A DNA stretch of 64,000 bases from a virus (taxonomy: Duplodnaviria; Caudoviricetes). Both the position numbers and the translations under genes were made by a program. Of this stretch, positions 3,050 to 42,698 are shown piece by piece; positions within the stretch are counted from its first letter, which is position 1; each line of letters begins with the position of its first letter. The notes below the pieces were generated by a model, which saw nothing but the letters and a program-made list of their open reading frames with translations, made no database searches and had not been told where the DNA came from. The DNA lies in the IMG/VR virus record IMGVR_UViG_3300037067_026376, positions 17,698-81,697 of that record; one strand, given 5' to 3'.

Positions 3050-3415
3050 TTAAGATTCCTTGTTTATTCGCATAAATGCCGATCTGTCATAAAACGCAGC
3101 CTTATAAAAAATACTGGCTTTATAGTTTCCATCTTGATCTATTAACTCACTCCACATGGAGTGATCTGTGGCCCGCTTACTCCATCCCTTCGGTAACTCA
3201 GCTATGCAAAAAATAGGATCTTTAGCTAAAGGACTACCGAATTTTACTCCCTGATCTTGAAGAATTTTTTTATCTTCATCATTTATATTTACTGGTAATT
3301 CGGAACTATTTATTAACTGATTTTGTCCTTTCTTTTCTTGTTGTTCAATTGCTTCTGGATTTACACCCATGATCCAACCCGGATGTTTTGCATTTTTTTC
3401 TGTATTCGTTATCAT
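3050..3415 (-). CDS. hypothetical protein
   Basis: 121 aa ORF in operon orientation; LPKGW...HSMWS...IFYKAAFYDR. Confidence 0.65.
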   Translation of the reverse strand: MITNTEKNAKHPGWIMGVNPEAIEQQEKKGQNQLINSSELPVNINDEDKKILQDQGVKFGSPLAKDPIFCIAELPKGWSKRATDHSMWSELIDQDGNYKASIFYKAAFYDRSAFMRINKES

Positions 3416-19390: not shown

Positions 19391-19819
19391 TTATCTTAAG
19401 CAATCATCAAAATCTACATCGTCATTTATTGTTTTTCCGTTTTTTAAATCCTCTATCGAATCTAAATAAAAAGGTCCTTGTGTTAAACATTTGTCGAGAT
19501 CCGGGAGATAATCTTTGACATCATCTATAATTGGCGGGAATTTATTATATTTCGGTTTATGTCTGGAAATATAAAAAAGTTCTTTGATGCAGCAATCTAT
19601 ATGAGAACTGGTTAATTCATAACAAAAAGAAAAAGCATTTTTTTCATAAAAAGATTGCATCATTCTGTTCCCTAAATTATTGCTCTTCCCTATATAAATT
19701 ATTTCATCACTGTATGGATTCTCTTCTTTAGATTCATCCATTAAAAAATATACTCCATTTTTACCTTTTAAAAGATGAATAAGTTTTTTTATTTCTGGAT
19801 TAAAATCATATCCTTCCAT
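19391..19819 (-). CDS. GIY-YIG nuclease-like protein
   Basis: GVYFLM...IIYIGKSNNLGNR...E...KPKYN. Confidence 0.75.
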   Translation of the reverse strand: MEGYDFNPEIKKLIHLLKGKNGVYFLMDESKEENPYSDEIIYIGKSNNLGNRMMQSFYEKNAFSFCYELTSSHIDCCIKELFYISRHKPKYNKFPPIIDDVKDYLPDLDKCLTQGPFYLDSIEDLKNGKTINDDVDFDDCLR

Positions 19820-20016: not shown

Positions 20017-20688
20017 CAAATATTTTGACCACTGCGAACTCATGGCCTCCGCGATTCCAGAGAAAGTGAGTGATCTTATCTTTGATCTGTTTTTTGATGT
20101 GGGCAAAAAATCTAAATGATTTTTAGACCTTTTTGAAAGAACAGGATTATAATGAGTAAGGCTGTATTTTTTATTTTTCGCTATTAAATATTCCGGAGTT
20201 ACAATTTTTGTGGATATCAACAGTGGTAATCCTTTGATCCATAAACATGTGGATTTTGTTTCAGGATGTCCGAACATCCATGGTTGGATGATTTGATCCG
20301 GTTTTCTTAAAACTGTACTCATGCATCCTGTTGGATTTTCAATACATTTATGTGGAATGTCGCAATAATACAATTTTTTAAAAAAATCAATAGCTTCGAG
20401 TCTGGCTTTCCTTCGCTCCTGTCCTACTAAAACGCCTGATTTACGCGCAGGTTGGTCTTTTAACCATTTATTAGCTGTATTAGTGAGATAAGTACAAGGC
20501 GGATGAAAAATACCTAAATCCCAGCCATCATCAAGATGTTTTAAAACATCATCCTGTATATGCCATTCCGGATGACCTCCCTCCGCCGGGATAATGTCGC
20601 AGGAATAAGCCTCGTGTCCTTTATCCCGAAAAGCCTTTGTTACTATTTGACTGAATTCACATCCTATTAAGACTTTAAGTTTTTTCAT
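20002..20688 (-). CDS. phage C5-cytosine DNA methyltransferase-like protein
   Basis: KVLIGCEFS...AYSCDI, FHPPCTYL, CIENP, QPWMFGH, K.TCLW, RSLTFSGIAEAMSSQW; likely start MKKL at 20688. Confidence 0.75.
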   Translation of the reverse strand: MKKLKVLIGCEFSQIVTKAFRDKGHEAYSCDIIPAEGGHPEWHIQDDVLKHLDDGWDLGIFHPPCTYLTNTANKWLKDQPARKSGVLVGQERRKARLEAIDFFKKLYYCDIPHKCIENPTGCMSTVLRKPDQIIQPWMFGHPETKSTCLWIKGLPLLISTKIVTPEYLIAKNKKYSLTHYNPVLSKRSKNHLDFLPTSKNRSKIRSLTFSGIAEAMSSQWSKYLLTSE

Positions 20689-20962
20689 TTTTTTAGTAAA
20701 GGTCCCCGCCCGGGTAATTATAAAGGGTTGTAAAGTGTAGTTATTTTGTGAGGTCCCGGGCGGGATCACCAATATGTATTGGTACTTTATATATCGGATA
20801 AAATCTATAAAAAGTCAATATTTTTTTTACTTAATATGAAGCCACCCGGCAGCTTCCTGTTCTGCCGGGTGGTTACTGCAATTCATTGTTTTTTTGAACT
20901 TAAATTATCTCTATATCCTTTTTAAAATTAAATTTAATAACGCCTCTACTGAGTGCGTGACT

Positions 20963-21496
20963 TTATAAGTCCTTAAAAATACTATCGAATTTATCAGCCA
21001 ACTTAGGATAAACTGTCTTAAGCGTATTTTTATATTCTGCACTTGTATCATTTAATTTTCCATTTATAACTAAATCAAAATCTGGAATCCATTTTTCAGG
21101 AACTTTGAATATCCAGTAAGCAAACGTGGAATCAAAGTCATCATCATAATCCTCTAAGTATTCAGGCATATTTTGCATTTCATTATTTTGTTCTAAATAG
21201 CTTTCTCTGTTTCCTCCTCCTGTCCTCGTATAAATTGTTATTACTTTTTCAGTAACATTATTCTTTTTTAATGGAATTCCGAATTGATCCATTTCTGTAT
21301 CTGAATTATTCGCACGTCCTGCAAAACAATCCCGGAATCTTGGATATTCATCAGGATGCTTTCCAAGCATTGGTAATATAAAAAATGTAGCAGGGTTCGC
21401 ACCATTTATTAAATTGTATAAACTCATTCTCTTTACTCCTTCGTTATAATTAAACATCAATCTGATGTTATAAAGCCTTCCTGTAAAGCCTGCCAC
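20963..21496 (-). CDS. conserved phage hypothetical protein
   Basis: YPRFRDC...IYTRTGGGNR...DDDFDSTFA; true start is probably the internal MSLYN. Confidence 0.6.
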   Translation of the reverse strand: MAGFTGRLYNIRLMFNYNEGVKRMSLYNLINGANPATFFILPMLGKHPDEYPRFRDCFAGRANNSDTEMDQFGIPLKKNNVTEKVITIYTRTGGGNRESYLEQNNEMQNMPEYLEDYDDDFDSTFAYWIFKVPEKWIPDFDLVINGKLNDTSAEYKNTLKTVYPKLADKFDSIFKDL

Positions 21497-24727: not shown

Positions 24728-25639
24728 TTATTCCTCAACAATATCTTTTACTATTTCTTTCGCATCTTTATCAGATAAAGATCCCGGATCCCCTTCAGAC
24801 AATACAATTATTTCTGATTTTACTCTTAAACCTTTAAGTTTTTTATATAATTCCTCTGCTTTTTTTTGAGCTTCTGCTTCCGGGTCAAACATAATTGATA
24901 CTTTTTCAAATCTTGATGCTATCAAATTCACCTGGGCATCTGTGTATCCAGTTCCGAAAGTCGCTGCAGCATAATCTCCCAATTTCCATTTATCCAGGAT
25001 CCCTTCCACGATAATTACGTGGTTGCCGGGAACATCATCTATGCCGTAAAGGATATCTTTGTGATGTACAATTTCCAGGTCCTCGGGGTAAGTCATATAT
25101 CGCACATCAGCTTTTCCAGTATAATTTCTTCCTTGAAAGGAAATTATATTTCTTTGATAATATATCGGAATGATAATTCTAAAAGCGAACAAATTTTTAT
25201 TTTTAATAAAACCTATGGGACCACAACACCTTAAATTATATTTTTTAATTAAATAATCAGGATCGAATCCGCGTCTATATAGATAATCTTTGGCTTGATT
25301 GTTGAGTTCTATAGTTCCTATAGGCCATTCTATTTTTTTTGCATGTTGTTTTTCTTTATTCATTTTGGAATAAATAATATCTGATTGATCGAATGAAAAT
25401 TTATATTGTCGAGAAATGGAGTTCCATGATATTCCAGTTAAGTTATATATAGCGTCAGGAAGAGGAATTTTTCCACATTTAAAACAATAAAAAATATTGT
25501 AATCTTTATGAATTGCCCCATGAAGTTTTCCGGGTGAAGAATTACAATACGGGCATGTACATTCCCACCACCCCCTAGAATTAGGACCTGAATAATTTAT
25601 ATTATAATTTAAAAAAAATTGTTCCCAATTATATATCAT
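24728..25639 (-). CDS. DNA primase (Zn finger + TOPRIM)
   Basis: CPYC...CFKCG, YLYRRG, RIIIPI, FQGR, IIVEGILD, IMFDPE, GDPG. Confidence 0.85.
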   Translation of the reverse strand: MIYNWEQFFLNYNINYSGPNSRGWWECTCPYCNSSPGKLHGAIHKDYNIFYCFKCGKIPLPDAIYNLTGISWNSISRQYKFSFDQSDIIYSKMNKEKQHAKKIEWPIGTIELNNQAKDYLYRRGFDPDYLIKKYNLRCCGPIGFIKNKNLFAFRIIIPIYYQRNIISFQGRNYTGKADVRYMTYPEDLEIVHHKDILYGIDDVPGNHVIIVEGILDKWKLGDYAAATFGTGYTDAQVNLIASRFEKVSIMFDPEAEAQKKAEELYKKLKGLRVKSEIIVLSEGDPGSLSDKDAKEIVKDIVEE

Positions 25640-26375
25640 TTAGATATGCGAACTCTCCATGATATATTAATGCCGCTTCATTATATGCTTTTGCTGCTCC
25701 TATTTTATCTTCAAAACAGCCTAAATGAATAATTTTATTATTATATTCAATTACGGCTTTCCATTTTTTAGCGCCTTTGTGCCAGCTAACACCTTTATAT
25801 CCAGAAGTATTATTTTTAGTTAATCCTCTATTTGACATATTTTGTTGATGCGTACATTGCCTTATGTTGGATTCTAAATTATTTAATCCATTCCTATCTT
25901 TATGATCTATCATTTTATTTTTAGTTTTAAACAATAATTCATGAATAGAAATAGTTAATTTTTTATTTTTTATTGGAAAGGTTGTTGTTGCATAAAAAGT
26001 TCCAGGTCTTTTTATAACACGCCATCTATATTCTTTAATTTTATTATAATTTTTAGTATCAATTAAAATTTCAAAATTTCCATATTTAGGGGATTCAATT
26101 AAAAATTTTGTAATATCTTCATCTTGATAAATAAGTTTATGTGATTTTCTTTTTTGTGTTTTTGACCAATGATGATTTATAAATTTTTTTGGTTTTCCTT
26201 CAAACATTTTGGTTAATAGTCCACAACCACATTTACAAAAATGTGTAGTATTAACAGTGGGATAATTTTTTCTGGTAGAGTGTCCTTTGATAAAATTATT
26301 ATATTTTTTTGTATATTTACTCTTCATAGTAAACTTTCCGCAGCCGCATTCACAGAGTTTTGGTATATTTTCCAT
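25629..26375 (-). CDS. HNH endonuclease with AP2 domain and N-terminal CxCGCG repeats
   Basis: LCECGCG, FCKCGCG, IDHKDRNGLNN..SNIRQCT, SGYKGVSW, AAKAYN. Confidence 0.85.
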   Translation of the reverse strand: MENIPKLCECGCGKFTMKSKYTKKYNNFIKGHSTRKNYPTVNTTHFCKCGCGLLTKMFEGKPKKFINHHWSKTQKRKSHKLIYQDEDITKFLIESPKYGNFEILIDTKNYNKIKEYRWRVIKRPGTFYATTTFPIKNKKLTISIHELLFKTKNKMIDHKDRNGLNNLESNIRQCTHQQNMSNRGLTKNNTSGYKGVSWHKGAKKWKAVIEYNNKIIHLGCFEDKIGAAKAYNEAALIYHGEFAYLNDI

Positions 26376-27410: not shown

Positions 27411-29263
27411 TACTTTTTCCTGTATCTATTCATTAAAATTGTAAGCATATTCTCATCTTCAGGTGCTTCTCCGTCCATGATAGCTGTTATTACCTGCCTC
27501 TTCTTATCTATTATTTCCGCCATATCCTCATCGATAGTATTTTCTCCGAGGAGATAATATATATTCACAGAAGCTGCTTTCTGTCCTATTCTTAAACTTC
27601 TATCTTCTGCCTGATCATGAGACGCCGGGATCCAATCCAATTCAATGAAAGCTACATTACTTGCAGCAGTCAAAGTAATACCCATGCCGGCAGCTTTTAT
27701 GTTTCCTGCAAATAATTTTATATCAGGGTTGTTCTGAAACTCATCTACAGATTTCTGCTTCTGATTCATGTTATCCCTGCCGTCAAGTTTTACCGCAATA
27801 TCAGGATATTTCTTCATAATCATATCTATAGCGGAGTGATGAACACAAAATAGTATAAGTTTTTCTCCAGATTCCAGGAACGTATCTATCCAGGAAAATA
27901 TCTGCTCCCTTTTTCCAGCTACAGTTAATTGTTTTAATTTTTCAAATTTAACGAGAACTTCCGCCATTGTAGCGCGAATAGCTGATTCCTGCCCTTCCGT
28001 TTCATGCAGATAATTTATAATGTCCGCTTCAGCTTTTTCATATTCCTTTCTGTTATTTATTTCCATGGGGATAACACTTCTCTGCTTGAGGGGAAGATCC
28101 TTTAGGACGTCTTTTTTTAATCTGCGTATCATGAATGAATTTACAAGGATTTTATGCAGCTTATCAGTATTGCTATGCCCTTTGAAACCGTCTTCCATAC
28201 TTCCACAATATTCCATTCCGAAATGATACCAGTTAGGGAATAATTTTGGATCAAGCATATTTAAAGTGGTAAAAAATTCTATTGGCCGGTTCATAATTGG
28301 AGTTCCGGAGAGGCATATTATTTTTTCCATTTTTCTTGATATTTTTTTGACCGCTTTCGTTCTCATTGCCTTCGGGTTTTTGATAGCTGAGGATTCATCT
28401 ATGATCATTATCTTAAAATTCATTTCCATTAGTAATTCAAGGTAATCTTTTAATATGTCATAATTTATGATCGTTATCTTTTTATCATCATAGAACACGG
28501 ATTGCCGTCCCTGTATGATTTGAACGTTATCACCTTCTTCCGGCATCCATTTCTTAATTTCCCTATGCCAGTTAAGTTTAAGAGTTGCCGGTACTACTAT
28601 GAGCGCAGGTCTTAATTCGGGATGTAACTTCATATAGACAATTGATTGTGCACTTTTTCCAAGGCCCATATCGTCTGCGAGTAATGCCCTGCCATTGAAT
28701 TTTTCAAGTAGCTGCACTCCTTCCTCTTGGAAGGGATATAACTTCAATCCTGTTTGCAGCGAGACATTGATATCGGCAGGCTTCACTTCTTCTATTTTTC
28801 CACCTTTAATCTCAAACCCTAATTCGCTCAGCTTATCATAACTGTATTTATTCGCAGGCAGGCTCCACTGCTTTTCATCTTTATTCCATACCCTGCCCGG
28901 CAGCCTCCGTATTTCTTCCAGAATTTTTTTAAATTCTTCTGTCGATCCGCCGAAATTAAGATAAATCATATCATTTTTAACTGCTGCGGTTTTATATGAT
29001 GGTCTTACTATCTGCTGATCCGTAGGCGAAGGCACGGGTATTTTGTCGTAAAGTATTTCCATTCCTGAAAGCTGATTTTTGTATTTGCTCAACATTTTAT
29101 GCACAGCATTCGCCATGTTATAAGTCCATGACGGTTTCGCCGCCAGGTCTCGTGCGAATGGAGAATCAAACCTATTAAACCCCTGCTGATCCTGTGATGA
29201 TGCGCCGTCACATACATTATTTAGTGCTGTCAGTGCCTGTCTTAACTCGGTATAGTTTTCCAT
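27410..29263 (-). CDS. SNF2-family helicase (SMARCAL1/HARP-like)
   Basis: LYPFQ.EG, LADDMGLGKS, IIDES, LSGTPI.NRP, RRLKKDVL, DWIP...QAEDR.LRIGQ. Confidence 0.92.
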   Translation of the reverse strand: MENYTELRQALTALNNVCDGASSQDQQGFNRFDSPFARDLAAKPSWTYNMANAVHKMLSKYKNQLSGMEILYDKIPVPSPTDQQIVRPSYKTAAVKNDMIYLNFGGSTEEFKKILEEIRRLPGRVWNKDEKQWSLPANKYSYDKLSELGFEIKGGKIEEVKPADINVSLQTGLKLYPFQEEGVQLLEKFNGRALLADDMGLGKSAQSIVYMKLHPELRPALIVVPATLKLNWHREIKKWMPEEGDNVQIIQGRQSVFYDDKKITIINYDILKDYLELLMEMNFKIMIIDESSAIKNPKAMRTKAVKKISRKMEKIICLSGTPIMNRPIEFFTTLNMLDPKLFPNWYHFGMEYCGSMEDGFKGHSNTDKLHKILVNSFMIRRLKKDVLKDLPLKQRSVIPMEINNRKEYEKAEADIINYLHETEGQESAIRATMAEVLVKFEKLKQLTVAGKREQIFSWIDTFLESGEKLILFCVHHSAIDMIMKKYPDIAVKLDGRDNMNQKQKSVDEFQNNPDIKLFAGNIKAAGMGITLTAASNVAFIELDWIPASHDQAEDRSLRIGQKAASVNIYYLLGENTIDEDMAEIIDKKRQVITAIMDGEAPEDENMLTILMNRYRKK

Positions 29264-29319
29264 AGTTTTAGCCCTTTATATATTATATATCGGAATATTT
29301 ATTGTTTTTATCAAAAGAA

Positions 29320-29342
29320 AACCCCGCTCTCACGGGGTTATT
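29320..29342 (-). terminator. intrinsic terminator for leftward early transcripts
   Basis: AACCCCG-TGAGAG-CGGGGTT followed by TTCTTTT on the minus strand. Confidence 0.6.
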
Positions 29343-29344
29343 AT

Positions 29345-29536
29345 TCATTGTTTTTGCAGATATAAATCAAAGCGTAATTTATTACTGCCCCAGTTTAATG
29401 AAACAAGCCTTAAAGCATCTGACCATTTCGTAGCAAGGGCATTTTTACTGGAGTAAGGAACAATCCCAATTTCAACGATCCAATTCTCGTCTATTCTTAC
29501 ATCGTTAAGTGTTTCTTTCAATTCTTTTACTGTCAT
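29345..29536 (-). CDS. early hypothetical protein
   Basis: 63 aa; preceded by the cassette RBS module. Confidence 0.55.
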   Translation of the reverse strand: MTVKELKETLNDVRIDENWIVEIGIVPYSSKNALATKWSDALRLVSLNWGSNKLRFDLYLQKQ

Positions 29537-29616
29537 AATAATTATCCCTTTATAATTATAGATTTGTAAACCCTCAAGGGTTTATGTAAGTCCCCCGCAG
29601 GAGACAAACATAAAAC

Positions 29617-29808
29617 TTAGAAGTTCATCATAATTGATTTATCTATTTCTTCTTTTGAATATTCCACTTCCGATTCCCAATAATTTTTGATTTTACATTT
29701 GTTATTCTGGTCAAAAATTACTTTTCTAAGTTTAGGACCATCGTTTATCAAATAATTAGATTTTGCAATAGCATAATAAATATTATTTTCTTTAAAAAAA
29801 GTTATCAT
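29617..29808 (-). CDS. early hypothetical protein
   Basis: 63 aa; RBS GGAGG. Confidence 0.5.
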   Translation of the reverse strand: MITFFKENNIYYAIAKSNYLINDGPKLRKVIFDQNNKCKIKNYWESEVEYSKEEIDKSIMMNF

Positions 29809-29820
29809 ATAAATCCTCCG

Positions 29821-30465
29821 TTATGCTGCTTTTAGATTTTCTCGGATCTCCCGAAGTGCTGATGTGATTCTGTATTCGTCCCAGCCTTTGCCATGAAAGT
29901 AATCATAGATTGCGTGCTGTTTCGCTTTCGCCCGGCTCATATTTGAGCGTTCCCGGAAATTACGTTCCATGATGAAATTATAGTTATAAATAATTTCATC
30001 ATGCATCTGCCGTGCGTCCCTGCTCATGCTCTGAAGCGTGATGTCGATAAGAAGATCGCTTTCTTCCTCTTTCCATCCCTTTACCTCTCTCCCGCAGAAC
30101 ATAGCCCCCTGGGGCAGATTAAGGGAATCGCTTCCGTTATCTTCTGAGTTGATAGAATCAGTATATTGATGATACCGTTCCAATTCCTGATTTTCCTGCA
30201 TTCTACCGTAGAACTCCCCGTTCTTTTTCTTGCCGCCGTTTATACTTCCCCGGCGTGCGTAATTATACATTTTCCAGAACAGAGATTTTGAGTAGAAGGT
30301 ATGAAACTTAGCTGCAGAGGGATTGAATTTTTCTGCGCACAGCATAAATGTATCGTGTGCTACTTCTAAAAGCTCATCCCTGTCTATCCCAGTAGTTTGA
30401 TGAATATTTTTTACCGTGATATTAATAGCTTTTTCTACTTCTTTCGTATAGAGTTCTTCATACAT
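29821..30465 (-). CDS. phage RNA polymerase sigma factor-like protein
   Basis: Region-2-like DRDELLEVAHDTFMLCAEKFNPSAAKFHTF..KSLFWKMYNYARR; region 4 is degenerate. Confidence 0.6.
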   Translation of the reverse strand: MYEELYTKEVEKAINITVKNIHQTTGIDRDELLEVAHDTFMLCAEKFNPSAAKFHTFYSKSLFWKMYNYARRGSINGGKKKNGEFYGRMQENQELERYHQYTDSINSEDNGSDSLNLPQGAMFCGREVKGWKEEESDLLIDITLQSMSRDARQMHDEIIYNYNFIMERNFRERSNMSRAKAKQHAIYDYFHGKGWDEYRITSALREIRENLKAA

Positions 30466-30548
30466 AGTATTGACTCTCCCTTTTATAATTTTGTTAAGCG
30501 TTTAAAAAACCTTACTCAATCCCTGCGTACAGGGAAAGAGTAAAACTT

Positions 30549-30923
30549 TTAATTTTTTACGATTTCTCTTATTGCGTTTTCTACCGCATCCCAATTCATA
30601 CCGTATTCATTATCTGTATGTCTTGAGATATGATCCAGAACCTCGCCAGCCTGAATATTGTTTATTTCGACATCCATTTCTTCCGCTTTTTCGTAGACGT
30701 CCGCAGTCTCCCATGTATCTACAATCGCAATCGTAGTTCCATATTTATCGTTTGTTTCAATCAGTTCAGCTTTTACGACATGGAAATCAGCATTCACTAT
30801 TTCTTTTAATTCTTTAACTCTTGTCTCGGCGTCACCTTCATGAAGAAAGAATTCGCCGTGATCATCATGCGATAATTTGTTTCCGTTTCTGCTTTCGCCT
30901 GATTTGATAAGATATACCTGCAT
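30549..30923 (-). CDS. early hypothetical protein
   Basis: Cassette RBS; C-terminal A.EVL...H....G.NWD pattern. Confidence 0.6.
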   Translation of the reverse strand: MQVYLIKSGESRNGNKLSHDDHGEFFLHEGDAETRVKELKEIVNADFHVVKAELIETNDKYGTTIAIVDTWETADVYEKAEEMDVEINNIQAGEVLDHISRHTDNEYGMNWDAVENAIREIVKN

Positions 30924-31003
30924 AGTATTAACCCCTTTATAATTATATTTAAAGTTTTTAAAAACTTTACTCTATAGGTATATATACCTATAGAGTAAAA
31001 TGT

Positions 31004-31201
31004 TTAATTTCTTCCTGCGATTGCTATTCCCTGCGGATTATAAATTAATGCGACATCTTTTAAAGGTATTCCGCCTTTATCGAAAACATTACCTTTATCA
31101 TCCATGACGGATTTGCAGAAATCATTATAATAATATTTGAAATCCTTCGCCGTTCCTTTCCTTTCTAATCCGTCCTCTACGATCCAGTATTTTGCTTTCA
31201 T
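31004..31201 (-). CDS. early hypothetical protein
   Basis: Start MKAKYW placed by the cassette RBS. Confidence 0.55.
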   Translation of the reverse strand: MKAKYWIVEDGLERKGTAKDFKYYYNDFCKSVMDDKGNVFDKGGIPLKDVALIYNPQGIAIAGRN

Positions 31202-31281
31202 AATATTAACCCCTTTATAATTATATTTAAACCTTAAAGGTTTACTCAATGACCCGTTTATACAGGTCAAAGAGTAACGCT

Positions 31282-31719
31282 TTAATATTCCCCGGCTTCG
31301 TCTTCAATTTCTTCTGCGTATTCCCTGAATTTATTTTTGTCCTTGTAAACTATTTCATAGGATAATTCAGGACCGTCTTCAGTGTCTCTTGCATCATAAT
31401 CAGCAATGATACAATTAATTGATTTCTCGCTGTCTGTTGCGACATAAGAGACAAACCCGGATTGTATCCCTATGACAATATTAATTTCGGGTTCGCTGTC
31501 GCTGGCTGGTTTTTCTTCTATTTTTCCGGCAGGATATAGAAATATTTCCGCAGTGCCGACGCTGTTTCCGTTAAAATCATTGAATCTGTCAAATAACGAT
31601 TTTATATCGTCATTCACTGCAATTTTTTTGCTGTACTCTGACAAGATTCTAGAGACTTCCTGACCTGGTTCGTCGCTAAATGCGTCGTTATCCAGATTGA
31701 TTTTAATAACTAGTTCCAT
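31282..31719 (-). CDS. early hypothetical protein
   Basis: IKINLDNDAF...EVSRIL...DFNGNSVG, recalled from phage early proteins. Confidence 0.6.
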   Translation of the reverse strand: MELVIKINLDNDAFSDEPGQEVSRILSEYSKKIAVNDDIKSLFDRFNDFNGNSVGTAEIFLYPAGKIEEKPASDSEPEINIVIGIQSGFVSYVATDSEKSINCIIADYDARDTEDGPELSYEIVYKDKNKFREYAEEIEDEAGEY

Positions 31720-31800
31720 TACATTAACCCTTTATAATTTTATTTAAGTCTTAATAGACTTATACAAAGGGAAAATAATTTTTCCCTAAGCATAAATACA

Positions 31801-32034
31801 TTAAAAATACGATAGATTTTTGATTGCTTTCTTGTCTTGTTCCCTATTCCCGATATGAATATTTTTAATTGCAGCCTGTAAAATTATTCTAGGAAGAATA
31901 AAATCGTCGCTGTAATCCTCTTTATTGATCCCGCCACTGATTAATAAGCGTTCGCCCTCAGACTTCAAAAATGACTTGAAATCACAATTATTGATCAGCT
32001 CTTCATATTTTACTTTAAATTGTTCCTTTGTCAT
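31801..32034 (-). CDS. early hypothetical protein
   Basis: Start MTKEQ placed by the cassette RBS. Confidence 0.55.
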   Translation of the reverse strand: MTKEQFKVKYEELINNCDFKSFLKSEGERLLISGGINKEDYSDDFILPRIILQAAIKNIHIGNREQDKKAIKNLSYF

Positions 32035-32120
32035 ATAATTAAACCCCTTTATAATTATTGTTAAGATTTTAAAAAATCTTATGCAATGACCTGAATATAT
32101 CAGGTCAAAACACAAAACTT

Positions 32121-32432
32121 TTATTTTACATTCGCTATCATGTCACGCTTTAAACCGTCGCTGACATTCCATATAATGGGATAATTATTTTCCCTTTCAT
32201 ACATTCTGTAATTATCTTTATTATATTTTTTCGGTAATAGATTATTCTCAAACATAATCGCCAATGCTGTTTGCTTGTAATGTTCGCCGTATCCGTAAAC
32301 TACAGGATCAGAAACAAATATTTTTCCGTCTTTTATGCGTTCGATATTTACAGAATGATAAGTATTACCATTTACTTTGTCGAACCAGCGCACAGCGGAA
32401 ACATTAAATAATATTACTCTTTGCTTTTTCAT
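32121..32432 (-). CDS. early hypothetical protein
   Basis: RWFDKVNGNTYHS...YGYG..Y.QTA motif. Confidence 0.65.
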   Translation of the reverse strand: MKKQRVILFNVSAVRWFDKVNGNTYHSVNIERIKDGKIFVSDPVVYGYGEHYKQTALAIMFENNLLPKKYNKDNYRMYERENNYPIIWNVSDGLKRDMIANVK

Positions 32433-32521
32433 ATAATAAACCCCTTTATAATTTATTTAAGTCTTTTTAATAGACTTATAAAACAGGGATAATAAAATAT
32501 TATCCCTGAAATATAAATTGA

Positions 32522-33388
32522 TTAATTTTCGCTAATATATTTTTCGGCGAATACCCCAGTTGTTTTGAAATTGATTGCCGGGATAGAAATTGATTTTTCG
32601 TTATGGTCAATGACTACAGAATTTGACGCTATCAGGTTTAAAAATTCCTGATATTTATTTTTTGTTTCCTGTAATTCTGAAACATATTTTTTTATATCGT
32701 CAATTAAGGCGATATAAAATTTGTCGTAATCAAAAAATTTAGTTACGGAAAAATTACCGTCAAACACTGCGTAATATAAGTATTCGCTGTCAATATCCAG
32801 AATATCAGTTAAGATGAATTGAAGAATTGATCCCGATTGGTGATTTAACATTAACGCAGTGTCAATATTCCAATCTGAAGAATCCGGAAAATTATCAAAA
32901 CTTGACCAAAAACCGTCGTAACTTGTGTAATGATCCCTTAAATATTGCGTCCATTCTTCCATATTATCAGAAATCAATTTTTTAATATTATCAATATTTT
33001 CCTTTGTGAATACAATTTCAATATTTACGGAATCGTTGTAAAAATTGTATTCTCTAGGCGAAACAATTTTCTGATAATTCAATTTCTTTATCAGATTATT
33101 TTTCACTAATATTGATTCAATTTCTGAAGCGCATTTTTTGCAAACCGCTGTTTCATATTCCCGATTTTTAAAATGATCATAAGATTTATTGTTTATGAAT
33201 GATTCAATCTTTTTTGATAATTCTTCGCTGTTATTATTCACTAATAATAAATCAATTTCACTGTTTCCAGTTTTTTTATTTTCGATCGATTCTTTTAAAT
33301 CCTGTATGATATAATCATTATCAGGTTCAAAAAGAGTATTGTAAAAACCTGGGAATACCGGTAACCATGATTCAACTTTTTTATTCAT
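32522..33388 (-). CDS. early hypothetical protein
   Basis: LPVFPGFYNT...SPREYNF.NDS...YTSYDGFWS motif. Confidence 0.65.
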   Translation of the reverse strand: MNKKVESWLPVFPGFYNTLFEPDNDYIIQDLKESIENKKTGNSEIDLLLVNNNSEELSKKIESFINNKSYDHFKNREYETAVCKKCASEIESILVKNNLIKKLNYQKIVSPREYNFYNDSVNIEIVFTKENIDNIKKLISDNMEEWTQYLRDHYTSYDGFWSSFDNFPDSSDWNIDTALMLNHQSGSILQFILTDILDIDSEYLYYAVFDGNFSVTKFFDYDKFYIALIDDIKKYVSELQETKNKYQEFLNLIASNSVVIDHNEKSISIPAINFKTTGVFAEKYISEN

Positions 33389-33468
33389 AATATTAACCCT
33401 TTATAATTAAATTTAAGGTTTTAAAAACCTTATCACTAGAGATATATTAATCTCTAATGATAAAAATT

Positions 33469-33612
33469 TTAAAGTGGACGTAAACAGCTTGTCTTGAAAA
33501 ACCAGTTTACGCCGTACCAGTCTTTATTTTTGCCGGTTAATTTTACAATATAAATTGTCCTTAATTCTTTTATTACAATTCCTGTCCCAATTCCTTTAAC
33601 ATATACTTTCAT
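33469..33612 (-). CDS. early small protein (47 aa, not in ORF track)
   Basis: Hand translation MKVYVKGIGTGIVIKELRT...TSCLRPL, lying between two cassette modules. Confidence 0.55.
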   Translation of the reverse strand: MKVYVKGIGTGIVIKELRTIYIVKLTGKNKDWYGVNWFFKTSCLRPL

Positions 33613-33693
33613 ATATTAACCCCTTTATAATTTTATTTAAGTCTTAATAGACTTATGCAAAGGGAAAATTATTTTTCCCTAAGTATAAACATA

Positions 33694-33870
33694 TTAAAAA
33701 TTATGATTTATCATCGGTTTATTATAATGTATATAATTATATATTTGTTGTTGTTCCTGCGGTGTAAAATCAGAAATTTTTATATATTTCTTTTTATTTT
33801 CCGATTCATAAATAAAATTAGTTTTATCGTCATAAAACCAGCGATAATTATTAATTATAATTTTTTCCAT
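33694..33870 (-). CDS. early small protein (58 aa, not in ORF track)
   Basis: MEKIIINNYRWFYDDK...INHNF, lying between two cassette modules. Confidence 0.55.
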   Translation of the reverse strand: MEKIIINNYRWFYDDKTNFIYESENKKKYIKISDFTPQEQQQIYNYIHYNKPMINHNF

Positions 33871-33958
33871 AGTATTAACCCTTTATAATTTATTTAAGTC
33901 TTTTTAATAGACTTATAAAACAGGGATAATAAAATATTATCCCTGAAATATAAATTGA

Positions 33959-34378
33959 TTAATAACCGTAAAGAATATCGGAAACATTCTTATTATATTT
34001 ATCATCACTATTTTTTAAAGCATAGAATAAATTTACTGTTCCGCCGCGCGGATCATGTTGAAATTCAGGAATGATTGAAATAAATTCGCTGATATTTATT
34101 TTCCCTGCGTACTCTTTTATTTTTCCTTCAATCAATTCTATTTCCCGATCAAATACAGTAAAATCATCTTTAATATATGCGTTTTTATCAGTTATGGAAA
34201 AATGACCTTTGCGGGGAATATACCCCTTACCATTACATGAATTTTCGCATTGCCGCTGATGCTGTTTATAAAGTTTTCTCAATTTCATAAAAAGCATTAC
34301 TTGATCATAATTTAATACAAGTCCTGCACGCTCAGCGAATACCCCGACGATAAAATAATACAGTTTTGTATTTTTCAT
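33959..34378 (-). CDS. early hypothetical protein
   Basis: LRKLYKQHQRQCENSCNG...FQHDPRG motif. Confidence 0.6.
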   Translation of the reverse strand: MKNTKLYYFIVGVFAERAGLVLNYDQVMLFMKLRKLYKQHQRQCENSCNGKGYIPRKGHFSITDKNAYIKDDFTVFDREIELIEGKIKEYAGKINISEFISIIPEFQHDPRGGTVNLFYALKNSDDKYNKNVSDILYGY

Positions 34379-34465
34379 ATAATTTTAACCCTTTATAATT
34401 TATTTAAGATTTTTAAAAATCTTATAAAGACAGGGAATATATAATTCCCTGCTGATATAAAAATT

Positions 34466-34705
34466 TTAATAACTTTCGATCCATTCACTTAATGACATTT
34501 TAAAATTCATTCGATTAAATACTTTTTCAATGTCATTGATATTTTTTGTATTAATTAAATCGGATATTATATCAGATTTATAATTTTTAATTGTTTCTAA
34601 TATTGCATCGTATACATACCCATTTTTTACTAAAATTTCAATTGCTTTTTCCGTATTTGCGTCAAATTCTTTTATTAAAGATTCTTTTATCATTTTATAA
34701 TTCAT
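34466..34705 (-). CDS. early hypothetical protein
   Basis: 79 aa with cassette RBS. Confidence 0.55.
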   Translation of the reverse strand: MNYKMIKESLIKEFDANTEKAIEILVKNGYVYDAILETIKNYKSDIISDLINTKNINDIEKVFNRMNFKMSLSEWIESY

Positions 34706-34792
34706 ATAATTTTACCCCTTTATAATTAGTATTAAGAATTTAAAAAATTCTTATCCATGAGTAATAATATTATTACTCATGGGAAAAACTTT

Positions 34793-35617
34793 TTACTTTA
34801 ATTTGAAATTAAAGCAATCCGTTTGAAATCCGCCGTAAACAGAATCATAATTATAACTGCGCTGAGCGTCGGCTTTTATTCCTATGCGATCATATTTTGC
34901 GTTGCCGTAACAAACAGGAATTGTCATTTTTTTAAACGTCTTATTCTCAAATTGACTGCCTGATCCCAGGAATTCGCCGAAAAAACCGAATTGAGTATTT
35001 TTGGGAATTTCTATTGATTTACAAGTTTTGATTTTTTCCTTTAATTCAAGAAAATCATTTAAAGAAATAGTAAACGGTAATTCCAGTAAACAAGCTCCGT
35101 ATACATTCGCATGTTCAGAAAGATAATCATCTTTTTTTATTCCCTTCCTTACTACTTTGAAAATCTCCGACAAATAACCTTTTTCCGACATAGTATCCAT
35201 TGAATTAGTACAGTCATAATTTGAATAAAATATCAGACTTGCCAATATTTCAGTATTAAGTAATTGATCATAATTCAAATTTACAACCGGATAAATCTCC
35301 AGTTCATTGATAAATTCTTTTATCAGTTTATCGTCAATTTCAGATTCTGAATGATCTGAAAGTAATATTTCAGCAATTTTTGATTTAAAATGATCAAATA
35401 TTATTTCTTCCTTAAAAAAATCTTCCTGCTGAAAGATATAATCTAGATTATTTTCATAAAGTTCATTGCAAAAATTATCGCTTCCCTCTTCTAGAATAGA
35501 AATAATTTGATTTTTTGACAAATTGTCGCTGCGGTCAAAATCAATCTTGACCGGGTTTTTGTCGCAGTATTCCTGAATTTTAACTTGTAAATCAGCAATC
35601 ATTTTTTCTTTTAACAT
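34793..35617 (-). CDS. early hypothetical protein
   Basis: 274 aa with cassette RBS. Confidence 0.65.
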   Translation of the reverse strand: MLKEKMIADLQVKIQEYCDKNPVKIDFDRSDNLSKNQIISILEEGSDNFCNELYENNLDYIFQQEDFFKEEIIFDHFKSKIAEILLSDHSESEIDDKLIKEFINELEIYPVVNLNYDQLLNTEILASLIFYSNYDCTNSMDTMSEKGYLSEIFKVVRKGIKKDDYLSEHANVYGACLLELPFTISLNDFLELKEKIKTCKSIEIPKNTQFGFFGEFLGSGSQFENKTFKKMTIPVCYGNAKYDRIGIKADAQRSYNYDSVYGGFQTDCFNFKLK

Positions 35618-35735
35618 AGTATTAACCCTTTATAATTAATATTTACGATTATTAAAAACCGTATAAAATGGCAGGAAAATTAATCCCTGTCAAAGTATCT
35701 GATTTTTAAATTAAAAGTTGCCGGATTGCTCCGGC

Positions 35736-35912
35736 TTACCAGATTTTATTGAAATTCTTTTTTAAAATTTGTTTTGCATAAATAAATTTTGGCAAAATTG
35801 AATCATCATTATCCCAGACAACATTAGTAAGTCTTGATTCGTACCTATCTAAAAATTTTAAAAGTCTTTCTTCAGTCATATTTTTTATAGTTGTTTTATA
35901 ATTTGTTTTCAT
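35736..35912 (-). CDS. early small protein (58 aa, not in ORF track)
   Basis: MKTNYKTTIKNMTEERLLKFL...; lacks the cassette RBS and is flanked by gccggattgctccgg hairpins. Confidence 0.4.
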   Translation of the reverse strand: MKTNYKTTIKNMTEERLLKFLDRYESRLTNVVWDNDDSILPKFIYAKQILKKNFNKIW

Positions 35913-36014
35913 AATTTGTTTTCCCGGACAATCTAACCCGGCATTTTGAGCCGGGTATTTTTTTATTTGCCGGATTGCTCCGGTTTGGTGTGCTAATATA
36001 CCATGTGGTATTTT

Positions 36015-36176
36015 TTAAATTACTATTAAATATTTATAATCGTATAAAACGGCCATACATAGTTTGTAGCTGTTGTATTCCGGATATAATTCTTTCACTT
36101 TTTCTTTTGCTATTGCCATGCAATCATTCGTTAATATTTCTTTCACTTTGTTGTATTGAGATTTTGTTATTTTCAT
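36015..36176 (-). CDS. early small protein (53 aa, not in ORF track)
   Basis: MKITKSQYNKVKEIL... with cassette RBS. Confidence 0.5.
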   Translation of the reverse strand: MKITKSQYNKVKEILTNDCMAIAKEKVKELYPEYNSYKLCMAVLYDYKYLIVI

Positions 36177-36876
36177 AATATTAACCCCTTTATAATTAAA
36201 TTTAAGTTTATAAAAAACTTATTACAGGACACTTTTAAAATGTCCTGTTTATAAATCTTTTATTTACAGTAATTAAACCAGAATATTTTGTAGTCACTCC
36301 ATAAAAATATATTATCTCTATCTTTATATTTTATCTCTTCAGCGATGTGATATATTTTTATATTATATTCTGATTCTATTCCGTTTTTTTGTTTGCATAT
36401 TTCTTTTTTAAAATCAATCATATAATCACCCTTTATAATTATAGTATAAGATTTAAAAAATCTTATGTAATGACTGTATTTAATACAGTCAAAACATAAA
36501 ACTTTTAAGCGACTCTTTTTTGTCTCAATGCTAAGCGGCGAGAAAATATTTTTCCTGTTTTGTCTTTTTCAAAAATTGTTTTTACATACTGGACATTACC
36601 TTTCAGGTCATAACATTTAACAAATTTTGTTTCATTTACAATTTTCATATTATTTTACCTGTTTTTTTATTTTTGATTTTAAAGCATAGTAAGAAATTAC
36701 TGCCGCTAACAATAACACCGCTTGTGATAATATTTCTAAAGTCTTTTTATCTAACATAATATTAACCCTTTATTAATTAGATTTAAGATAAAAATTAATA
36801 TCTTACTAGATAAGACAATTTGCATTGTCTTAAATAGTAACATATTAAAAACTGCAAATATATTATTTATTCCAGA

Positions 36877-37061
36877 TTCGACGATTTATAAAAAGATATA
36901 AACCGGACAGGATAATATATTTGTCTTTGTGTTAAGTTTAGGGTTAATTATATAGGGTTATTAGATTTAATTATTTTGCTTTTGCCGTATTGATCGGGAT
37001 ATACCCGGATTATACAGTGTTGCAAAGCCTTAATCTTAAAATTAAGTTTTAAATCGTCGAA
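36877..37061 (-). ncRNA. stem-closed leader RNA at the head of the early operon
   Basis: 12-bp closing inverted repeat TTCGACGATTTA/TAAATCGTCGAA, internal hairpins, two AACCCTA motifs. Confidence 0.5.
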
Positions 37062-37092
37062 TTTCAAATAACCAGTTGTACTTTACATATAT

Positions 37093-37122
37093 AATATAGT
37101 AATAATATCGGTTAAAAGTCAA
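37093..37122 (-). promoter_or_regulatory. sigma70-like early promoter
   Basis: TTGACT-18 nt-TATATT, with an upstream T-rich UP-like tract. Confidence 0.6.
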
Positions 37123-37229
37123 GAAAAAAAAGAAAAAAAAGTGAAAAAAGTTTACGTATGTAAACAAAAACAGGCAAAAATTGAACTTTTTTTAATAAAA
37201 AATAGATAAATTCAGGGAAAAATAAAATA

Positions 37230-37700
37230 ATGTCCGATATAAAATAAATATATCTATAAGAGCAATAGACATATAGACATATAGATAATAATAAACAGGA
37301 TATAACAATCAAATAATATAGAGATATAGAGTATCTGTATATAATGTATTATTTATATATTCAAATAATACGATATAATAGAGCTAAACAGGATATTATA
37401 TATTACATTAAATTGATTGATTATACAATACAGGATATATACAATACAGGATATATAAACAACAATATCCGATATAAAAGAAATATAAACAATAAGAGAT
37501 AAACAATAAAGTAATGATAATAAACAGGATATAATATATTTCTTCGAATTGATCGATTATACAATACCCGATATATAGTAAGAGTAAAGGGTAAGAAAAT
37601 AAAGAAAAATATACAGGATACAGGGCAAAAGCAGGGAAAGAAATATATGGCGGCATACTATCTATTTATCTATATATTCAAATAATACGATATATATAAC
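37230..37700. repeat. AT-rich region with dispersed ACAGGATA and (C/A)CGATATA repeats
   Basis: About six ACAGGATA and five CGATATA copies; tandem acaatacaggatatat; duplicated tatattcaaataatacgatata. Confidence 0.75.
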
Positions 37701-38012
37701 CTGATTATATAAGCTTTTTATAAGACTGATAGTGCTATGAGACATAACATATATTAGAGGAAGTAATACTATATGGACATTTTCATATAAATGTCCATAA
37801 AACATAAAACCATGTCCTATAGCCTATTACACGTTGTTCAACCTCGTATAATTTTATGGAAATTTTTTCTGGCCTCCATTTCCTATAATATCCTCTCCCT
37901 TCTATTACGAGACATTACTCCCGTATAATTTTATAGGAATTTTTTCCTACCCCCTTATTTCTATTAAGTATTTCTTTATTATATTCCGATATATATGTTA
38001 TGGAGTAAATGA

Positions 38013-38588
38013 ATGCTTACAGGTACGATGCTTGTTAATGGTTTAAATAAAGATAAAGATAGGAGAGAATTAGATTATTACCCTACTCCTCCACAGGTTA
38101 CTGCTGCTTTATTAGAATATCTTAATAAATTATATGAATTATCTACTATGACTTGTATTGAACCCGCCTGTGGTACTGGTGAAATGGTAAAGATTTTAGA
38201 AAAATATTTCCTTCGAGTACAATCCTCGGACATTATCCTTGAATGTTATGGGGTGGGAGATACAGACTATTTAACAACTCCTTATCCAGGATCTGAAAAT
38301 ACTGCGTTGATAACAAATCCCCCTTTTAAACATTCAGAAGCATTTATCAGGAAAGCTATTGCTGAAAAACATTTTATCACAGCAATGTTATTAAAAAGTC
38401 AATATTGGCACTCTAGGAAAAGATATTCCTTGTTTATGGATACAAATCCTGCTTATATATTACCTCTTACTTGGAGACCTGATTTTTATTTCAGTAAAAA
38501 AGGGAGCTCTCCTACTATGGAAGTTATATGGACGGTATGGGTTAATGCGCCTCATGATAATTGTATATATCACCCTCTTATTAGATAA
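38013..38588 (+). CDS. N6-adenine DNA methyltransferase-like protein
   Basis: DYYPTPP, IEPACGTG, ITNPPF. Confidence 0.8.
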   Translation: MLTGTMLVNGLNKDKDRRELDYYPTPPQVTAALLEYLNKLYELSTMTCIEPACGTGEMVKILEKYFLRVQSSDIILECYGVGDTDYLTTPYPGSENTALITNPPFKHSEAFIRKAIAEKHFITAMLLKSQYWHSRKRYSLFMDTNPAYILPLTWRPDFYFSKKGSSPTMEVIWTVWVNAPHDNCIYHPLIR

Positions 38589-38675
38589 ATCTCTCTATTA
38601 GAAACCATCATTCCTTTAAAATTTTACAATATTTTTTTCTAGGGTCTTTTTCTATAAAATTCCGATATATAGATA

Positions 38676-40666: not shown

Positions 40667-41173
40667 TTGGCAAGGAAAGGAAACACGCCGGTTGTATCCG
40701 GGCCCGGTGGAGGTCTCCCCGGATCAGGACGCACACCCAAGGCCCTCATGTTTAAAAATTATCCCCAGGCGATAGCTAAACTTGATGAGGGTATATTACC
40801 CGCGATACAAGTGCTTATCGATGGATTAAAAGCGACTACTAATGTTTATAGCAAAGACGGCACTCTGGTAGAAGCTAATGTTCCTGATAAATGGTATAGG
40901 ATGAATTGTGCGGTACAGTTGCTGAAGAAAGCCATTCCGGATAAGAAGATAAAGGAAATTACCGGCGCTGAGGGCGGACCCATAGAAGTAAATGTGAATA
41001 AAAGAGAGACTGTATTTAATATATTACAGGTGCTTGAGAGTAAATCATTAGAGGAGTTAAGGCAGGAAATAGAAGATGGAAATTTCCAATTATCTGAACC
41101 TGACGGAAGAGCAGCGATTACAACGGAGGCAACAGTGGAAGGAGAGACAGTCAAAGAAGAAGAAGGGAATTGA
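40667..41173 (+). CDS. terminase small subunit
   Basis: LLKKAIPDKK..EITGAEGGPI motif; directly upstream of TerL; TTG start. Confidence 0.65.
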   Translation: MARKGNTPVVSGPGGGLPGSGRTPKALMFKNYPQAIAKLDEGILPAIQVLIDGLKATTNVYSKDGTLVEANVPDKWYRMNCAVQLLKKAIPDKKIKEITGAEGGPIEVNVNKRETVFNILQVLESKSLEELRQEIEDGNFQLSEPDGRAAITTEATVEGETVKEEEGN

Positions 41174-42698
41174 TCCCGAGCAGGAACACGCCAGAGACAG
41201 AGCTTTAAAAGCCCTGTTTTTAATAAAACAGCATCTTAATAAAGAGATAACGCTTTCTCAGACTGAAATAACTACTCTCTGTGCTGTCGTAGTGGAGAGA
41301 AGTTCCGATTTATTTTTCTTTGCTAAACATGTCCTGGAATTTAATCTTCTTACGGAACAAACTCATAAGAGATGGGCGGATGATCTTATCACTGCGGTAA
41401 AGAAGGGAAAAAAAAGAGTAATGAGGCTGAAGCCCCGGGCGACGTACAAGTCTACCTTATATGGGATATCTTTTGTTCTGTGGATATGGGGGTATATCTC
41501 TCCTCAAGTTAGAATATTTTACACATCTTCTAATAAACTTCTTCTTGATGAAATTGCAGATTCTTTGAGTTCTTATGTAGGTACGGATAAAAACGAAACG
41601 TTATATTCTTTTATTTTTGGGGTTGTCAGAGACGACTCTGCTAAAAATACTTCAGACGTATTTAATCTTCGCGGGAGGAAAGGAAAAGGATTTTCTCTTA
41701 TTTTAAGAACTTCCGGAAGCTCTACTGTTGGTGTTCATCCGAATATAATAATTATTGATGACCCCTTGAACGAAGAAGACCGTAATCATGAATTGGAGAG
41801 AACAAATAAGGAGAGGTGGTTTGATACTCTTAACCCTCTTATCGTACCCTTTTATGATGAGAAGAATGACATAACTTTTGAATCTCTTTATTATATAGGA
41901 ACGCGCTGGCATCTTAGAGATCTAGTGTGGTACATAATGGAGAAACTGGTCAAGGAGAAAAAACAGGAATGGGATATAGAATCTGAATCTATTATAGGGT
42001 CTGATGGTCATTCCTTCTATCCGGAATTATTCACAGATAAGCAGATACTGGAATTAAAAGGAACGATGTCGGAAATATTTTGGAGTTGCCAATATTTGAA
42101 CTCTCCGTTGTCCGAAGGTTTACAAACTTTCGATTTAAAACGTCTTACCTTTGTTCGCCCTTCTCAGTTTAAAGAAGTATTCAGATACGGCCAGATCATC
42201 TGTGGATTTGACCCCAGCTTAGGTAAAAAACATAGTGACTTTCCCGCGGTATGGTGGGCGCATTATTATAATGACACCATAACTTTCTTTGATAACATAG
42301 ATGAAAAAGTGGAATTGACGCTTCTTATACATCAGATCGCGGCGAAGAATAAATTATATCGCTGTCGGAAAATGGTGTATGAAAATAATGGCGTTACCCT
42401 AGTGGAAAAGGCCATTAAAGATGCTCATGCCAGATTGAACTGGAGAATAGATATTGACCCCGTACACCACGGTAGCGATAGCAATAAAAACGAAAGAATT
42501 GTTTCCACGCAGCCTGATTTATATTCCGGGTATGTACGGTTCCTGTCTGATTACGAGCGCAGGTACCCCGAGGCGATGAACCAGATAGTATTTTATGGCG
42601 CTTATGGCAATGATGACTATCCGGACTGCATGGAGATGATAATATCTTATTTTAGGCGTCCTCATTTTGAATTTACAAGATATTCCGGAGCATTATAA
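41076..42698 (+). CDS. terminase large subunit
   Basis: PRATYKSTL Walker A, IIIIDDP Walker B, YIGTRWH, CQYLNSP, GFDPS, DDYPD. Confidence 0.9.
   Translation: MEISNYLNLTEEQRLQRRQQWKERQSKKKKGIDPEQEHARDRALKALFLIKQHLNKEITLSQTEITTLCAVVVERSSDLFFFAKHVLEFNLLTEQTHKRWADDLITAVKKGKKRVMRLKPRATYKSTLYGISFVLWIWGYISPQVRIFYTSSNKLLLDEIADSLSSYVGTDKNETLYSFIFGVVRDDSAKNTSDVFNLRGRKGKGFSLILRTSGSSTVGVHPNIIIIDDPLNEEDRNHELERTNKERWFDTLNPLIVPFYDEKNDITFESLYYIGTRWHLRDLVWYIMEKLVKEKKQEWDIESESIIGSDGHSFYPELFTDKQILELKGTMSEIFWSCQYLNSPLSEGLQTFDLKRLTFVRPSQFKEVFRYGQIICGFDPSLGKKHSDFPAVWWAHYYNDTITFFDNIDEKVELTLLIHQIAAKNKLYRCRKMVYENNGVTLVEKAIKDAHARLNWRIDIDPVHHGSDSNKNERIVSTQPDLYSGYVRFLSDYERRYPEAMNQIVFYGAYGNDDYPDCMEMIISYFRRPHFEFTRYSGAL

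Follow-up and report, generated by a model that had tools for sequence, protein, structure and literature searches.

The window analysed here comprises 64,000 nt (positions 17,698-81,697) of the 81.7-kb IMG/VR viral record IMGVR_UViG_3300037067_026376, the completeness of which was estimated at 59%; all coordinates refer to the window. To the left of ~36.8 kb lie small leftward early genes and then replication genes, including an SNF2 helicase, a primase, DnaB, a DnaE-type polymerase and UvsX, and to the right of 38 kb are the terminase, portal and head genes. Genes resembling GIY-YIG and HNH homing endonucleases were found inside the replication block (19394-19819 and 25632-26375, minus strand). 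The two gene arms are separated by a 1.3-kb gap that holds the GC-skew minimum and iteron-like repeats. Positions 37200-37700 of this divergent gap are densely filled with direct repeats (ACAGGATATA as well as 16-nt and 136-nt units), and this repeat-rich part is probably the replication origin. One copy of the gap repeat falls within the leader of the early operon, at 36907-36927.

The terminase gene (41076-42698) had its best matches in the phage record collection among archaeal viruses (ANMV-1 and Methanobacteriales viruses), with identities of just 22-27%. Because of these weak matches an archaeal TATA-box reading was considered; it was rejected, as the spacing was unsuitable and sigma70-type promoters and Shine-Dalgarno-type sites were present. 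The promoters and ribosome sites of the phage look bacterial. Many of the terminase homologues (from relatives P0002, P0017, P0020, P0023 and others) were 780-930 aa long and carried LAGLIDADG or Hint/intein Pfam domains, and inteins appear to invade this terminase family; the terminase of the window phage is 540 aa long and intein-free. A scan of the 20 larger proteins revealed no phage RNA polymerase, a search with PF00940 gave only an 11.8-bit match, below threshold, and no phage-encoded sigma factor was detected among the proteins scanned.

Between 29.5 and 36.8 kb, 15 early genes are each preceded by two hairpins and by the invariant 12-nt core AATTATAAAGGG, which lies 8-12 nt from the ATG. 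These cassettes are located as follows:

36763-36777 (ribosome-binding core), 36757-36755 (start codon) and 36650-36757 (35-aa ORF), minus strand: the first cassette, recognized by its consensus match and by a homologue in the relative L122.
29541-36440, minus strand: the other 14 early cassettes, recognized by the invariant core ahead of the ATG; predicted targets of the antisense copies.

The AAAGGG(G) part of the core, with its distance to the ATG, fits a Shine-Dalgarno site; the other genes of the phage have AAAGGGAG-type ribosome sites instead. A T7/T3-type promoter reading of the core (...TAAAGGG) was rejected because no phage RNA polymerase was found among the larger proteins scanned and the spacing between AAAGGG and ATG fits a Shine-Dalgarno sequence. 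About half of the bases in the cassette cores were predicted to be unpaired. The first early ORF, which is missing from the 40-aa ORF list, encodes a hydrophobic peptide; its homologue is 29 aa long in L122 and is absent from the relative L007. Several of the long junction hairpins of the array (29200-36800, minus strand) scored as intrinsic terminators, so that read-through or control by attenuation may be required in the array. In total 13 terminator-like sites were found in 29200-36800, where 2.6 were expected; several of them were junction hairpins on the minus strand, and some junctions did not qualify. Promoter-like matches of the sigma70 type in the same interval numbered 60 (45 ± 8 expected) and showed no systematic placement at the junctions.

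A 15-nt cassette consensus had 17 matches with at most two mismatches, where 0.8 were expected. Fifteen of them lay on the minus strand ahead of start codons, and the other two, at 36946 and 20716, lay on the plus strand, with no further plus-strand copy in the remainder of the 81.7-kb record. The copy at 36946-36960 matched the consensus at 14 of 15 positions in the orientation opposite to that of all 15 cassette copies, and a second AGGGTTA was present at 36940-36946 on the plus strand. This bore out the first-pass annotation, which had described a stretch complementary to the consensus at 14 of 15 positions, followed by a second AACCCT. The six bases upstream of the Shine-Dalgarno part were invariant in all 15 cassettes, which goes beyond the needs of ribosome binding and could mean that a protein of the phage or its host recognizes the core, as a RegA-like translational repressor or by binding to DNA; the inverted copies would then be extra operators or irrelevant. 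T4 RegA, which acts on about 30 initiation regions, is a precedent for such a protein (PMC3014915). However, an RNA-binding protein would meet the complement, and not the motif, at both inverted sites, a DNA-binding role leaves unexplained the single-stranded display of the first copy and the clamped loop that holds the second, and no family match among the scanned proteins points to a candidate. We consider recognition by a protein improbable.

Relatives were reached by two routes: L122 and L123, which represent one phage, through the first early gene, and L007, part of the IMG/VR record G001 (71% identity), through the terminase homologues. Both L122 and L007/G001 have the same cassette design as the window phage and, like it, a long leader ahead of the first early gene. 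The features of this leader are:

37093-37122, minus strand: early-left promoter of the sigma70 type, TTGACT-18-TATATT, found by consensus scan, with a T-run upstream at 37123-37150.
36758-37086, minus strand: untranslated leader of the early operon, ~330 nt, delimited by the promoter and the start codon of the first cassette, with an inferred start site.
36978-37028 and 37029-37046, minus strand: two sub-hairpins within the variable 5' leader domain, from the minus-strand fold.
36876-36888, no strand assigned: one arm of a 13-bp perfect inverted repeat found only in the window genome.
37050-37062, no strand assigned: the other arm of this repeat.
36795-36923, minus strand: conserved 3' domain of the leader, with a 25-bp hairpin (36795-36819/36824-36848), a 12-bp helix (36855-36866/36912-36923) and an inner hairpin that rivals the 13-bp stem.
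36936-36960, minus strand: tandem anti-RBS segment, G-free and predicted to be single-stranded, antisense to the core at 36946-36960 and with the second AACCCT at 36940-36946.

The proposal that 36877-37061 belongs to a leader behind an early promoter was supported. The promoter block was 82-89% identical in L007 and L122, no ORF of at least 40 aa was present on either strand between 36650 and 37040, and no terminator-like site was found in 36400-38200. A permissive Rfam scan of 36000-38600 and 20500-21000 gave chance-level matches to unrelated families only.

The same annotation had the leader closed by a 12-bp stem around two sub-hairpins, with a wobble pair favouring the minus strand. When the minus strand of 36870-37070 was folded alone (z -3.35), the closing stem and the two sub-hairpins were obtained, and the antisense stretch was unpaired in both the minimum free energy (MFE) and the centroid structure. 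The stem is 13 bp long and not 12, and in the full leader it had an ensemble probability of ~1%, lying 3.3 kcal/mol above the MFE. Among 200 dinucleotide shuffles of the 551-nt non-coding stretch, 10 also contained a perfect inverted repeat of 13 bp or more, which is borderline with respect to chance. The 3' arm of the stem differs in both relatives, and the sub-hairpin interior (36978-37046) is replaced by different hairpins in L122 and L007. As one covarying local hairpin uses bases that the 13-bp stem needs, the comparison favours this hairpin over the stem, which was rejected as the organizer of the leader. At the stem itself the wobble was ambiguous, since the plus-strand fold extends the stem through one G-U pair and the minus-strand fold has another G-U further out. 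A MITE-like insertion bounded by the 13-bp repeat was rejected as well: the record contains only one copy of it, and in L122 the inner 3' part is shared but the 5' part is different, so that the breaks in homology do not coincide with the ends of the repeat.

The 3' domain was better conserved. In the RNAalifold consensus of the three leaders 97.5% of the cells were paired, and 10 pairs had changed on both sides, compared with 3.6 ± 1.5 in shuffles and 0-1 with slid partners; these covariation figures are based on three sequences, from which the structure itself was derived. The wobbles of the domain fit the minus strand only, in which orientation there are five G-U pairs and not one A-C pair.

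These wobbles also bear on rightward transcription of the region, in which the sense copies would serve as a decoy for ribosomes or a regulator, or the RNA would be antisense to the early leader. The first-pass annotation had raised the decoy, and the plus-strand promoter that it named, TTGCAT-17-TATTAA at 36820-36848, does exist, as does GTAACA-16-TATATT at 36837-36864; the plus-strand fold of the region is also stable (z -2.76). However, neither L122 nor L007 has kept the TTGCAT -35 element, the sense copy does not stand out in accessibility on the plus strand, there is no ORF or terminator downstream on that strand, and the pairs of the 3' domain take the minus orientation. We regard a plus-strand product as highly improbable. 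Plus-strand promoters with a TAGGGT-type -35 element were examined too and rejected, as no GATATA element lay at the right distance. A further suggestion, that the leader acts as a guide or attI-like site, was weakened: no tyrosine recombinase (PF00589) was found in the 81.7-kb, ~59% complete record, by a search that matched in 14 of 14 control genomes.

The antisense site lies ~125-150 nt downstream of the early promoter within a G-free run of ~53 nt. With the first ribosome-binding site removed, it was the most accessible 20-nt window in each of the three leaders, with unpaired probabilities of 0.78, 0.90 and 0.82 (top 1% of windows), compared with medians of 0.37-0.42. Part of this accessibility is compositional, since few partners exist for a tract without G in an RNA that is itself poor in G. 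The claim that the antisense copy is non-random was supported, and the copy is predicted to be unpaired on the minus-strand RNA.

Unstructured, C-rich, G-free tracts resemble rut sites, and the leader and the hairpin at 20.7 kb might serve mRNA stability, processing or Rho loading, with the likeness to the core being incidental. The G-free runs (~53 nt in the leader, 40 nt in the 20.7-kb loop) would suit such a role, and the several hairpins of the conserved 3' domain could belong to an element for processing or stability. Neither Rho loading nor stability calls for a double 14/15 match to the core or for its retention with a genome-specific A-run length, though, and we consider a generic structured leader very unlikely.

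An element that pairs with ribosome-binding sites would have targets throughout the array. The earlier proposal that one RNA could pair with the ribosome-binding sites of ~16 genes agrees with the predicted duplex energies, calculated for 16 sites (the 15 early cassettes and the helicase gene at 29263). These ranged from -10 to -16 kcal/mol for the leader site and from -12 to -18 kcal/mol for the loop site at 20.7 kb; the averages for the two antisense sites were -14 and -16 kcal/mol, compared with about -7 kcal/mol for 39 other genes. In all three genomes the MFE structure of the full leader had the antisense segment paired to the first gene's ribosome site, with a probability of ~0.95 in the window. 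This was striking, yet the best duplex between leader and first ribosome-binding site was equalled or beaten by 89, 86 and 109 of 500 shuffled leaders in the three genomes (17-22%), and shuffling of the upstream leader left the first ribosome-binding site sequestered to no lesser degree (14/60, 21/60 and 58/60). Since shuffled leaders perform as well, sequestration in cis was not counted as evidence.

The second plus-strand copy of the consensus, which the first-pass annotation had missed, is the main new result. It lies 16 kb from the early leader in another leftward leader:

20705-20764, minus strand: GC-clamped hairpin with a 10-bp all-GC stem (20755-20764/20705-20714) and a G-free 40-nt loop.
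20788-20818, minus strand: promoter-like site before the hairpin, TTGACT-17-GATATA, embedded in the recurring motif TCCGATATATA.

The last 15 bases of the loop (20716-20730) are antisense to the cassette consensus with one mismatch (14/15). The hairpin folded with a z of -3.87, its MFE and centroid structures were the same, and the loop copy had an unpaired probability of 0.97. On the minus strand the order is a GC-rich hairpin, TTGACT-17-GATATA within TCCGATATATA, a small hairpin, the clamped hairpin and a 228-aa gene without a Shine-Dalgarno sequence. As no cassette-type ribosome-binding site is present near the loop copy, it can meet its complement only on another RNA, or far along its own. 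For this reason, and because the gene behind it is without a Shine-Dalgarno sequence, a purely local role is unlikely, and the loop copy is a stronger candidate for action in trans than the leader copy. No terminator-like site was found in 20500-21100. With no terminator at either element and both continuing into coding sequence, neither of them is free-standing.

The TCCGATATATA motif had 18 matches (3.6 expected). Each of its five perfect copies precedes, and points the same way as, a gene of the replication block or one of the first rightward genes. The motif is a likely second promoter class, although a strict sigma70 scan made no call at 20788-20818. Positions listed for the motif are 20788, 25159 and 29284 on the minus strand and 37985, 38661 and 39233 on the plus strand; the rightward copies have TAGGGT 18 nt upstream. 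The sole other sequence for the 20.7-kb region was L207, which is identical there and is the same phage from another sample. No close relative was found for the neighbouring 228-aa protein, a member of a very large family, and L208, tried as a relative for the hairpin, was rejected because it is unrelated upstream.

The early leader could be compared more widely. The long-leader relatives share two conserved blocks that flank it, namely the early promoter block and a block with the 25-bp hairpin. Between these the 5' half is rebuilt by large indels in each genome, and homology among the window phage, L122 and L007 covers the 3' half, which runs from the antisense segment as far as the start codon of the first gene. 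In L007 an insertion of ~67 nt with two hairpins, flanked by the short direct repeat CTTTAATTT, lies between two antisense copies (3090-3160 in plus-strand coordinates). An inverted copy of the core was present in all three long-leader genomes, with exactly one each in L122 and G001, at the same leader position. The cassettes of G001 read ATAAAAGGG, with four A's, and so does its inverted copy, whereas the window phage and L122 have three positions at that spot in cassettes and inverted copy alike. Accordingly, the L007 copy had one mismatch to its own consensus and two to the other, and the window copy one and four. The co-variation of leader and core looked for in related phages was therefore found in that each copy is closest to its own consensus; it amounts to a single indel-type event, which gene conversion among repeat copies could also give.

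Such conversion is central to another account of the two inverted copies, in which the 12-15-nt core provides homology for cassette shuffling, a modular exchange of the PeSL (promoter-early stem-loop) type, and two copies have ended up inverted in non-coding DNA, kept similar by gene conversion and without an RNA function. Cassettes are indeed exchanged between relatives while the junction stays unchanged, and the thermodynamic tests of pairing in cis were not significant. Moreover, some cassette-bearing relatives do without an inverted copy. It was absent from the four short-leader relatives L008, L204, L206 and L328, in which the promoter, a TTGAC(T/A)-type promoter kept at the same place, lies ~30-40 nt from the first gene. 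L206, with 10 cassettes and a core of its own, had no inverted copy within the 19.5-kb locus examined, ~6 kb of which is the early region; L328 had been obtained by a profile search with the first conserved 47-aa gene. The long leader is thus a clade-specific addition and not a universal companion of cassette arrays. An argument against such a by-product is that each inverted copy is limited to the stretch that does not vary among the 15/15 cassettes; the boundaries are the same in the two, and none of the flanking module accompanies them. Both also lie at the most exposed position of non-coding, transcribed-looking 5' leaders on the gene strand, downstream of promoter-like sites, and the leader copy has been kept in three genomes despite flanks rebuilt by indels. 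We consider this account unlikely, although the most probable of the alternatives. Searches of viral contigs with DNA patterns for the first conserved block and the promoter returned the L007 record only, the single metagenome match (L011) being rejected as an unrelated chance match. The cassette-core pattern occurred in multiple copies in the L007 record only, and the L206-type core pattern gave no multi-copy record.

The most economical account, in our view, is that the leader segment and the 20.7-kb loop are anti-RBS RNA elements that act on the early cassettes. We put it forward tentatively, at somewhat less than even chances, on the strength of sequence comparison and folding models. The stretch 36877-37061 would then be the 5' half of a ~330-nt leader of the leftward early operon, transcribed from the minus-strand promoter at 37122-37093, and the functional core of this leader would be the G-free segment 36936-36960 with its two antisense copies, not the 13-bp stem. 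The loop at 20705-20764 would sit in the leader of a replication-block transcript, behind a promoter-like motif of the TCCGATATATA class. Both elements would pair with the AAUUAUAAAGGGUU region of the cassette mRNAs and mask the Shine-Dalgarno sequence, the leader copy reaching the first cassette on its own RNA most easily and the loop copy acting on other RNAs only. Translation of the early genes would thereby be lowered or ended, and the duplexes might also be substrates for an RNase. The sequences, their orientation and conservation, and the match of each copy to the core of its own genome were observed, and accessibility and duplex energies were computed; from these we infer transcription, the timing of the promoters, pairing in vivo and any effect on translation. 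With only one or two antisense sites in each transcript for ~15 targets, the stoichiometry would be unfavourable unless fragments of the leader built up.

Should the pairing prove real, it would account for the six bases outside the Shine-Dalgarno sequence that do not vary in any cassette, and for the identical tag carried by an array of unrelated small early genes. It would also provide the phage with a cheap, protein-free timing of a gene class, and would yield a short, portable pair of address and antisense that can be tested with reporters in laboratory strains. A broader and more doubtful extension is an early shut-off by RNA only, an RNA equivalent of T4 RegA/RegB, in which a private 12-15-nt tag would serve as the address and the antisense copies, one in the early leader and one in a clamped loop on a later replication-class transcript, would silence the whole early set; such a system may recur in many uncultured phages.

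The cassette array resembles the PeSL cassettes of T4-type phages in its small early genes, its conserved regulatory junctions with stem-loops and its exchange among relatives (PMC2839356). The junctions in the window differ in that they are not enriched in sigma70 promoters (60 matches, 45 ± 8 expected). We know of no antisense partner reported for PeSLs.

In T4, RegA and the RegB endoribonuclease shut down early genes at their initiation regions, RegB acting on the Shine-Dalgarno sequence itself (PMC3014915). The one-to-many shut-down of early genes at translation initiation regions is what the proposed system shares with them (PMC3014915). Their effectors are proteins, whereas complementarity between RNAs is the effector proposed here, and among the phage proteins scanned none resembling RegA or RegB was identified.

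In RsaE/RoxS, RNAIII and the CcsR 'cuckoo' RNAs, C-rich unpaired motifs pair with the Shine-Dalgarno sequences of many mRNAs. The elements described here likewise have an exposed, CCC-containing loop or linker that is complementary to G-rich ribosome sites; this C-rich motif was predicted to be unpaired (0.78-0.97) and had sixteen predicted targets above background. They differ in being parts of mRNA leaders and not sRNA genes with a terminator, as no intrinsic terminator bounds a short RNA, and in having no Rfam match, a comparison limited to the Rfam scan. The complementarity also extends 6-8 nt beyond the Shine-Dalgarno sequence, into the private, phage-specific tag.

The arrangement of the early leader is most readily compared with the c4 antisense RNA of P1/P7, which shares the immI operon with its targets icd and ant (Citron and Schuster, 1990, cited in PMC8198154). 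There the antisense lies upstream of the target in the same operon, short complementary segments cover the ribosome-binding region, and the RNA is able to act on its own transcript and on others. By position, the putative early operon would fit this layout, with the promoter at 37122-37093, the antisense segment at 36936-36960 and the first ribosome-binding site at 36763-36777, and the 14/15 complementarity covers the cassette core including AAAGGG. The elements in the window have no match in sequence or structure to the Rfam C4 model or to another family. In its native setting c4 acts on one target, functions in lysogeny and is matured by processing into a discrete RNA, whereas the elements described here would address ~15 predicted targets through one tag in a lytic early array.
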